From the NCBI RefSeq assembly GCF_057098645.1, contig NZ_CM169472.1: 64,000 bases of DNA; one strand, given 5' to 3'. Of this stretch, positions 29,270 through 31,240 are shown one piece after another; positions within the stretch are counted from its first letter, which is position 1; every line of letters starts with the position of its first letter. Under the pieces are notes generated by a model. The model was given only the letters and a program-made list of their open reading frames with translations. It ran no database searches and was not told the origin of the DNA. The position numbers and the translations under genes are program-made.

Positions 29270-31240
29270 ATGAGACTCAAAAAACATTATCTCTGCACAG
29301 CATTATCACTTGCCTTTACCCAGCAGGCCGTAGCGGCTCAGGAGAGCGACTCGCTGACCGTATGGTCCAGTCCGGTATCATCGACGACGACCACCGTTCT
29401 CGATCAACCCACCATGAAGGCCCTGGATAAACAGAATGTCGCTCAGGCATTAAGTGTCGTCCCCGGCGTGGTGCTGCAAAAGTCAGGCAGCCGCAACGAA
29501 GAACAGGTAAAAGTTCGTGGCTTTGATAGTCGGCAGGTGCCGGTCTATTTCGACGGTGTGCCCATTTATGTTCCCTATGACGGCAACCTCGATCTGGCGC
29601 GGATTCTGACCAACAATCTGGGGGCAGTCGAAGTTTCCAAAGGGTATTCGTCGCTGCTTCAGGGGCCTAATCAGATGGGCGGAGCCATTAATATCACCAC
29701 CCAGAAGCCAACAAAACCTCTGGAAGCAAGTCTGGGATATCGCCAGGGATGGAGCCGTAGCCAGGACAATGCCTACGATATGCATGCTTCATTTGCCGCC
29801 AGTAGCGATCTGGGGTATTTGCAAGTCAGCGGTAGCCAGCTAAAGCAGGATTTTCTCGGCCTGCCGCATGGTGTAAATAATGATATTGCAGGCAAACACG
29901 GCAAGATGATTAATTCATCGGCTGATGATAAACGCGGCATTGTGAAGCTCGGATTTACACCACGTGAAAACGATGAATACACACTGACTTACATTAAGCA
30001 GGATGGTGAAAAAGATAACCCGCCATACAGCGGAAATAGTGGTCAAAAATCACGCTACTGGCAGTGGCCAGAGTATGACAAAGAAAGTTTTTATTATCAG
30101 GGAACGACCCAACTAAACGATCGTTTTACCCTGAAAAGTCGGCTGTATCGCGACACCTTTGAAAATACGCTGATGATGTACAACTCGCTGGCTGATTTGA
30201 AAAATAAAAAAGGCAGCTACAGCCATTATTCCGATTACAGCGACGGTGCCGGATTACAACTGGCAGCCGATGTGCGTGAAAACGATCTGCTGTCGTTTGC
30301 CGTTAACTGGAAAGATGACGTACACCGGGAAAAAGGTGCGCCGCACGCCGCTTACGATCGCTATGAAGATCGTACCTGGTCGCTCGCCAGTGAATATCAA
30401 TGGGCTGCTGCCGATAATGTCGATGTCGTGGCTGGAATCAGCTATGACTGGCGCGATAGCGTAGAAGCGAAAAAACACGAGAAAGATGGCAGCATCACCC
30501 ATTATGACGACAACAATCAGTCAGCTTTTAACTGGTAGGTGATGGGGAAATACCACTTTGTCAATGAAGACACGCTGGCGCTTTCGTACTATGACCGCAC
30601 ACGCTTTCCGACGCTGAAAGAACGCTATACCACATCCAAACCTGCGTATAACCAGATAGCGATTGTTAACCCGCAGCTCAAGCCGGAACGCGCTCGCGGG
30701 GTGGATTTAACCTGGAATGGTGCCTTCACGCGCGACTGGGGATTTGAGGTCAGCGTTTACTATAACCGGGTGAGTGATGCCATCCTCTCGCACAATATCG
30801 ATGCCGATACCATTCAAAATCAGAACAGCGGCACGGTGGATTACAGCGGTCTGGATGCCGGTATTAAGGGGAAAATCAGCAATATACTGGATGTAGGATT
30901 GAGCTACGCCCTGATCCACGCTGACGCCAAACGCAAAGACATCGGCAAGATAACCGATCTGCCAACGCAGACAATGACCGCATGGATGACACTCAAACCA
31001 TGGGAGCCGTTAAGCGTAACGCTGTCGGAAGAGGCGCGATCCTCCAGCTACAGCAACAGTGACGGTTCACAAAAAGCCGCCGGTTTTGCGGTGACCCACA
31101 TTCGAGCCGATTACACCTTAGGTCATGGCTTCAGCGTCAATGCGTCGGTCAATAACCTGTTTGATACCCAATATGCCTACAGTGAAGGGTTTATTGAAGA
31201 AGGCCGCAATTTCTGGGCAGGTGTCGAGTATACGTTCTGA
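29270..31240 (+). pseudogene. TonB-dependent outer-membrane receptor interrupted by a single in-frame TAG (30536-30538)
   Basis: ORFs 29249-30538 and 30539-31240 are in the same frame and abut; signal peptide and TonB-box-like DSLTVW at N-terminus; receptor-type C-terminus ...WAGVEYTF. Confidence 0.75.

Follow-up and report, generated by a model that had tools for sequence, protein, structure and literature searches.

A single C-to-T transition very probably turned a TonB-dependent receptor gene into a pseudogene in a small O145-related lineage of Escherichia coli

In the window, the 64-kb stretch of DNA analyzed here, which is part of an Escherichia coli chromosome, two open reading frames (ORFs) lie end to end on the forward strand in the same frame, and both carry parts of a TonB-dependent receptor. 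The upstream ORF (29249–30538, 429 aa) begins at a TTG codon and the downstream ORF (30539–31240, 233 aa) begins at a GTG codon, and they abut at the sequence ...TTT AAC TGG TAG GTG ATG GGG..., in which the TAG occupies positions 30536–30538. This arrangement raises the question of whether the two ORFs are separate genes or a single gene broken by a stop codon and, in the latter case, how the gene was broken, what remains of its product, and why the broken allele has persisted. A preliminary description of this DNA had proposed that a single nonsense mutation cut the receptor roughly two-thirds of the way along and left the downstream part undamaged. We addressed this proposal by comparing the window with complete genomes, public contigs, protein families, and a structural model of the repaired receptor.

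The receptor gene spans positions 29270–31240 (+), comprising 1,971 bases and 656 codons when intact, and the TAG was its sole interruption. The ATG at 29270 is the start assigned by PGAP in E. coli O145 strain RM9872; with this start, the intact receptor has 656 residues, rather than the approximately 663 proposed previously, and the stop falls at codon 423, that is, at 64% of the receptor length. The first 422 codons (29270–30535) encode a signal-peptide-like N-terminus, MRLKKHYLCTALSLAFTQQAVA, read from the translation, followed by a TonB-box-like motif, DSLTVWSS, picked out by eye only, a plug domain at about residues 39–139, and the barrel as far as a strand at residues 417–429. The plug match (PF07715; residues 39–139, E = 3e-21, 76 bits against a cut-off of 23.9) was confined to the N-terminal fragment. 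The remaining 233 codons and the natural stop (30539–31240) are no longer translated; they specify the latter half of the barrel, and this fragment matched profile positions 230–436 of the family TonB_dep_Rec_b-barrel (PF00593). When the stop was removed, the PF00593 match ran unbroken over residues 223–630, across the position of the stop. Thus, the gene contains an in-frame stop, its frame is continuous in orthologues, and the sequences on both flanks belong to one protein, as is characteristic of a nonsense pseudogene. The signal peptide, TonB box, and plug of a TonB-dependent transporter are present in the window. A complete barrel, ending in the aromatic terminus ...GVEYTF, was found for the repaired receptor and the RM9872 receptor, whereas translation of the window allele breaks off within a strand, after residue 422, leaving a product with about half of the barrel absent. 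Because it lacks a complete barrel, the window product is a disrupted member of the TonB-dependent transporter family. The plug region and the C-terminal aromatic residue (...EYTF) that had been expected of the repaired receptor were both present.

The closest complete genome to the window was that of RM9872, and its comparison with the window established the history of the stop codon. In RM9872, the same 1,971 bases form one non-pseudo CDS (WP_001400575.1), and the two halves in the window are therefore no chance juxtaposition. Only one base of the receptor gene differed between the two genomes: position 30536, which is T (TAG) in the window and C (CAG, Gln) in RM9872; the downstream part (30539–31240) was identical to the RM9872 allele, showing no secondary decay. 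The single mutation and the undamaged downstream part of the original proposal were thus both upheld. Two separate genes were also looked for at this point in orthologues, and a single uninterrupted CDS was found in UTME-4, 10035004-3, and ST131 strain 5392, as in RM9872. The ancestral codon had been supposed to be TGG or TAT; alignment with orthologues corrected this to CAG, which was present at codon 423 in six of six alleles sampled across different lineages (RM9872, UTME-4, 10035004-3, ST131 strain 5392, L010, and L012). At a deeper level, Gln occupied the position of codon 423 in 79 of the 100 homologues aligned (26–58% identity), and the neighboring Asn421 was conserved in 91 of the 100. 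These comparisons indicated that the event is a C-to-T transition at 30536, which changed CAG (Gln423) to TAG; we refer to the resulting allele as Q423*.

The whole 64 kb differed from RM9872 by approximately 24 substitutions, two small indels, and four presence/absence differences of IS elements. As judged from these differences, the source strain of the window is related to RM9872 but distinct from it, and the amber codon is one of the few changes that separate them. The other differences are scattered along the window. Non-synonymous substitutions relative to RM9872 affect the essential gene kdsA (G132D, position 1511), ymgE (S63I, 31357), and umuC (N32K and D337G, 46861 and 45947). At 36995, the window lacks 24 bp that RM9872 has, an in-frame deletion within an AAGA-rich tract of 12-bp tandem repeats; the tract is part of a hypothetical gene of 446 aa that adjoins a truncated cvrA. 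An autotransporter-type ORF of 961 aa (14192–17077, +) is intact in the window, whereas the RM9872 copy is split by an IS3-family insertion. Conversely, a 1,310-bp IS3-family element with an ALIL frameshift pseudoknot (RF01497; 50519–51828) and a 1,330-bp element (52812–54141) are absent from RM9872, and these two insertions flank a 983-bp piece of the ycgJ–pliG region; the IS junction at 50519 was shared by none of the complete E. coli genomes searched. Ordinary E. coli features of the window include rdlD antitoxin RNAs (147–212 and 682–747, −) beside ldr toxin genes, and the sRNA C0299 (47435–47513, −).

To place the stop within the fold, an AlphaFold2 model of the repaired receptor was built on the 100-sequence alignment, and strands were assigned by DSSP. 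In the model, which was confident (mean pLDDT 92.9, pTM 0.91), a plug precedes a full barrel. Residues 151–403 hold 11 long strands of this barrel, and about 10 more come after the strand at 417–429, the last being the C-terminal strand at 647–655. Residue 423 has a central position in the 417–429 strand, which is about the 12th of the 22 strands of the modeled barrel. The truncated product is thus predicted to retain its signal peptide, its plug, and roughly half of its barrel, but not the C-terminal end. In outer-membrane protein biogenesis, a closed barrel and a C-terminal aromatic signal are required for BAM-dependent insertion; a fragment lacking both would therefore not be assembled and would be degraded. 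Loss of receptor function is the expected result of Q423*, and the outer-membrane uptake step, which the preliminary description had suspected of being silenced, would indeed be lost if the model and the general rules of outer-membrane protein assembly hold for this receptor. We also considered whether a working C-terminal half could arise by reinitiation at the GTG or ATG immediately after the stop, and rejected this possibility by inference, since such a fragment, lacking a signal peptide, would have no route to the outer membrane.

The receptor gene ends a series of six closely packed genes that share one orientation and lie between treA and the convergent gene ymgE. The first gene (24814–25836, +) encodes a periplasmic substrate-binding protein of the Peripla_BP_2 or FecB/BtuF type, with weak NCBIfam matches to FecB/BtuF-type binding proteins; it is an intact CDS, as in RM9872, and is identical to it. 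It is followed by a FecCD-family ABC permease (25836–26816, +), intact and with no differences from RM9872, by an intact ABC transporter ATPase (26813–27571, +), by an intact class I SAM-dependent methyltransferase (27581–28393, +), and by an intact ModD (NadC-like, TIGR01334; 28390–29244, +), which scored 504 bits against a cut-off of 178.85. The proteins encoded by these five genes were identical to those of RM9872, and the sole further difference in the operon was a synonymous one at 28222, in the methyltransferase gene. The interrupted receptor gene (29270–31240, +) closes the operon, and ymgE, which comes next, is transcribed toward it; the stop therefore has no downstream gene to affect, and no polarity arises. 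We searched for regulatory elements as well. No Fur box was found with a consensus search of the whole window allowing three or fewer mismatches, and the best match upstream of the operon (14 of 19 positions, 24783–24801) was reached by 24 of 500 shuffled sequences and was thus unconvincing. In an Rfam scan of the whole window, neither a riboswitch nor a leader was found ahead of the operon, and the matches from promoter and terminator scans were not above the shuffled expectation. A run of C residues at 24554, in the intergenic region between treA and the operon and about 260 bp upstream of the first start codon of the operon, has five residues in the window and six in RM9872.

The receptor region matched 2,149 of the 5,426 complete E. 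coli genomes searched and was absent from about 60% of them, which defines the locus as accessory; K-12-type genomes are without the operon. Eight of the matches to the receptor gene were on records labeled as plasmids, an unexpected placement for a gene whose locus, between treA and ymgE, is chromosomal. Literature searches for ModD together with a TonB-dependent receptor, and for the presumed EDL933 locus tags Z1961–Z1966, returned nothing on this operon. The receptor could not be placed in a curated family: it was far below every cut-off of the NCBIfam receptor families for copper, B12, haem, siderophore, CirA, and FecA, the best scores being 125 bits against 223.5 (TIGR01783), 78 against 599.7 (TonB-B12), and 50 against 472 (TonB-copper), so that no cut-off for BtuB, the copper OprC/NosA type, haem, CirA, FecA, or FepA was reached. 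Sequence matches in the PDB covered the plug only. In structure, the repaired model superposed on OprC (the copper transporter of Pseudomonas aeruginosa), BtuB, Cir, and PqqU/YncD with TM-scores of approximately 0.72–0.80 (Foldseek); however, identity to these proteins was only 14–18%, and the gene in the window encodes about half of the barrel. Among relatives, the closest homologue (P0031, 59% identity) lies in a cluster with the order binding protein, permease, ATPase, methyltransferase, and receptor, with no ModD, and a distant homologue (P0035, 34% identity) lies within a ModABC/TupABC-like molybdate/tungstate cluster; the regions concerned are L015 1–9713 and L013 3263–9004. The presence of ModD in the operon, the cluster of this distant homologue, and the copper transporter OprC as the top structural match hint, by analogy, that the receptor family may handle a metal species other than iron.

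Having established the lesion, we asked whether this operon had been inactivated elsewhere, and why an allele such as Q423* would be retained. A different amber allele of the receptor, W370* (TGG to TAG), was found in other lineages, in 21 complete genomes and 3,983 blocks of the sequence collection. Its site (L010 2950–2952, corresponding approximately to 30377–30379 in the window) cleaves the gene into ORFs of 369 and 270 aa, and many of the complete genomes carrying it are dog or urinary isolates; strains D8, UPEC132, and O4:H5 CU532-9 are examples of carriers. Similar C-terminal receptor fragments of 270 aa have also been recorded from Shigella flexneri. W370* resembles Q423* in affecting the same gene with an amber codon inside the barrel, with the same predicted consequence; however, it lies at codon 370, on an allele with 37 differences from that of the window, and is far more widespread. 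Frameshifted receptor alleles are annotated in HCP5S3_I2 and W13-16, and these may also be assembly errors. In addition, the methyltransferase gene carries an amber allele of its own, W215* (TGG to TAG), for which an exact 81-mer was present in 196 complete genomes; in the one example examined, the O157-like beef isolate UTME-4 (L002 1975–1977), it is annotated as an internal stop. The synonymous difference at 28222 in the window lies in methyltransferase codon 214, adjoining the codon affected by W215*. Since independent inactivating alleles (W370*, the frameshifts, and W215*) occur across the operon, we consider the locus dispensable, and the repeated inactivation in O157-type, some extraintestinal, and O145-related lineages suggests that the operon is dispensable in those niches.

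This recurrence could also be read as adaptive, with the same molecular event but a knock-out favored by selection, either because a phage or bacteriocin exploited the receptor or because the system was costly. Three independent amber codons, found in one operon but in different lineages, are in keeping with such selection, as are the frameshifted receptor alleles; the receptor carries two of the three, and two have become widespread. TonB-dependent receptors are also common targets of phages and colicins. However, of the approximately 2,140 complete genomes with the locus, by far the largest part have an intact receptor, W370* being present in 21 and Q423* in none. Moreover, the commonest knock-out is that of the methyltransferase, which general decay of a dispensable accessory operon explains better, and we know of no phage or bacteriocin that uses this receptor. 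We thus regard selection for loss as unlikely in the case of Q423*. The broader proposal, that Q423*, W370*, and W215* together reflect recurrent selection to lose a possibly metal-linked, TonB-dependent uptake pathway, appears slightly less likely still; such selection could arise if a phage or bacteriocin entered via the receptor, and in that case the allele in the window would represent convergent adaptive loss of the receptor rather than neutral decay. The distribution of the inactivating alleles, together with the absence of the locus from about 60% of complete genomes, is consistent with the ordinary decay of an accessory system that the cell can do without.

Loss of function would not follow if a suppressor tRNA or weak termination allowed ribosomes to pass the amber codon and make a useful amount of full-length, functional receptor. 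The identity of the lost residue gives this possibility some appeal, as natural near-cognate read-through of UAG in E. coli, which is low in level, tends to insert Gln, and suppression of the supE type also inserts Gln, so that such insertion at codon 423 would restore the wild-type sequence; Q423* may for this reason be slightly leaky. The 233 downstream codons also carry no further damage, but a mutation of very recent origin would leave the same picture, given approximately 24 substitutions relative to RM9872 over 64 kb. In terms of the translation machinery, the 64-kb window contains no tRNA genes, and neither prfA (3976–5058, −), which encodes RF1, the release factor that reads UAG, nor prmC (3143–3976, −) shows any damage or any difference from its counterpart in RM9872, which has the normal receptor allele; there is therefore no sign, within the window, of globally weakened termination at UAG. 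Suppressor tRNA alleles are rare among natural isolates, and we know of no recoding signal for TAG in E. coli. Read-through that yields a functional amount of receptor is thus very improbable. Recoding of TAG of the pyrrolysine type was ruled out; to our knowledge, E. coli has no Pyl machinery.

The allele itself proved to be rare and yet was recovered repeatedly. An 81-mer centered on the TAG had no exact match among approximately 2,110 complete E. coli genomes with the locus, the best matches having one mismatch, whereas a 121-mer with the CAG restored was present exactly in 405 complete genomes. In a public protein collection built from NCBI, ENA, and Logan, the exact truncated product of 422 aa occurred in 38 index blocks representing 23–24 contigs, and the matching downstream ORF of 232 residues occurred on 29 contigs. 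One of the contigs carrying the allele (L006, from run ERR8531222) had a receptor gene the same as that of the window, including the TAG, but C at 28222 where the window has T. Because of this difference, at least two distinguishable genomes carry Q423*. The stop was thus reproducible in contigs from three public sources and on a distinguishable background, and these two observations together indicate that Q423* is a real allele rather than a one-off error. The distribution points to a small natural lineage that has no representative among the complete RefSeq genomes. The one-base difference from RM9872 and the absence of the TAG from every complete RefSeq E. coli genome might suggest instead that sequencing or assembly introduced the TAG into a gene that is actually intact. 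This is very improbable, the least probable of the alternatives: contigs from NCBI, ENA, and Logan run-level assemblies repeat both the truncated product (on 23 contigs) and the downstream ORF, L006 is distinguishable at another base, and a C-to-T substitution is no typical homopolymer or indel error.

Taken together, these results make it very probable that a recent point mutation, from CAG to TAG, converted the receptor gene into a pseudogene in one small lineage related to O145 strain RM9872. The mutation, its direction, its rarity, and its occurrence in independent assemblies were established here, as was the position of the affected residue in the modeled fold. From these we infer the loss of assembly and function and the reason for the persistence of the allele, and we propose the following course of events. 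The C-to-T change at 30536 would stop translation at codon 423, midway through about the 12th of the 22 strands. The product of 422 residues would still be exported via its signal peptide, but without the second half of the barrel and its aromatic assembly signal it would not become a closed barrel in the outer membrane. On the general understanding of outer-membrane proteins, periplasmic degradation of the truncated barrel would then be expected. The operon would still encode the ABC importer of the inner membrane and both enzymes, and only the dedicated outer-membrane gate would be lost. Persistence of Q423* would be explained most simply by relaxed selection on an accessory locus. For annotation, it follows that the two ORFs should be recorded in this lineage as one pseudogene (Q423*) rather than two genes, and the allele could act as a clone-specific marker SNP.

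Compared with the lineage-specific nonsense pseudogenes of accessory loci in E. coli and Shigella, Q423* is alike in every main respect: it arose by one substitution, close relatives retain the intact gene, only a small clone carries the allele, the rest of the gene is undamaged, and the locus affected is an accessory one that has been inactivated elsewhere too. No substantive difference from those pseudogenes was apparent, apart from the fact that Q423* itself occurs in no complete RefSeq genome searched. Thus, we concluded that Q423* represents ordinary gene decay, an event of an already-known kind.
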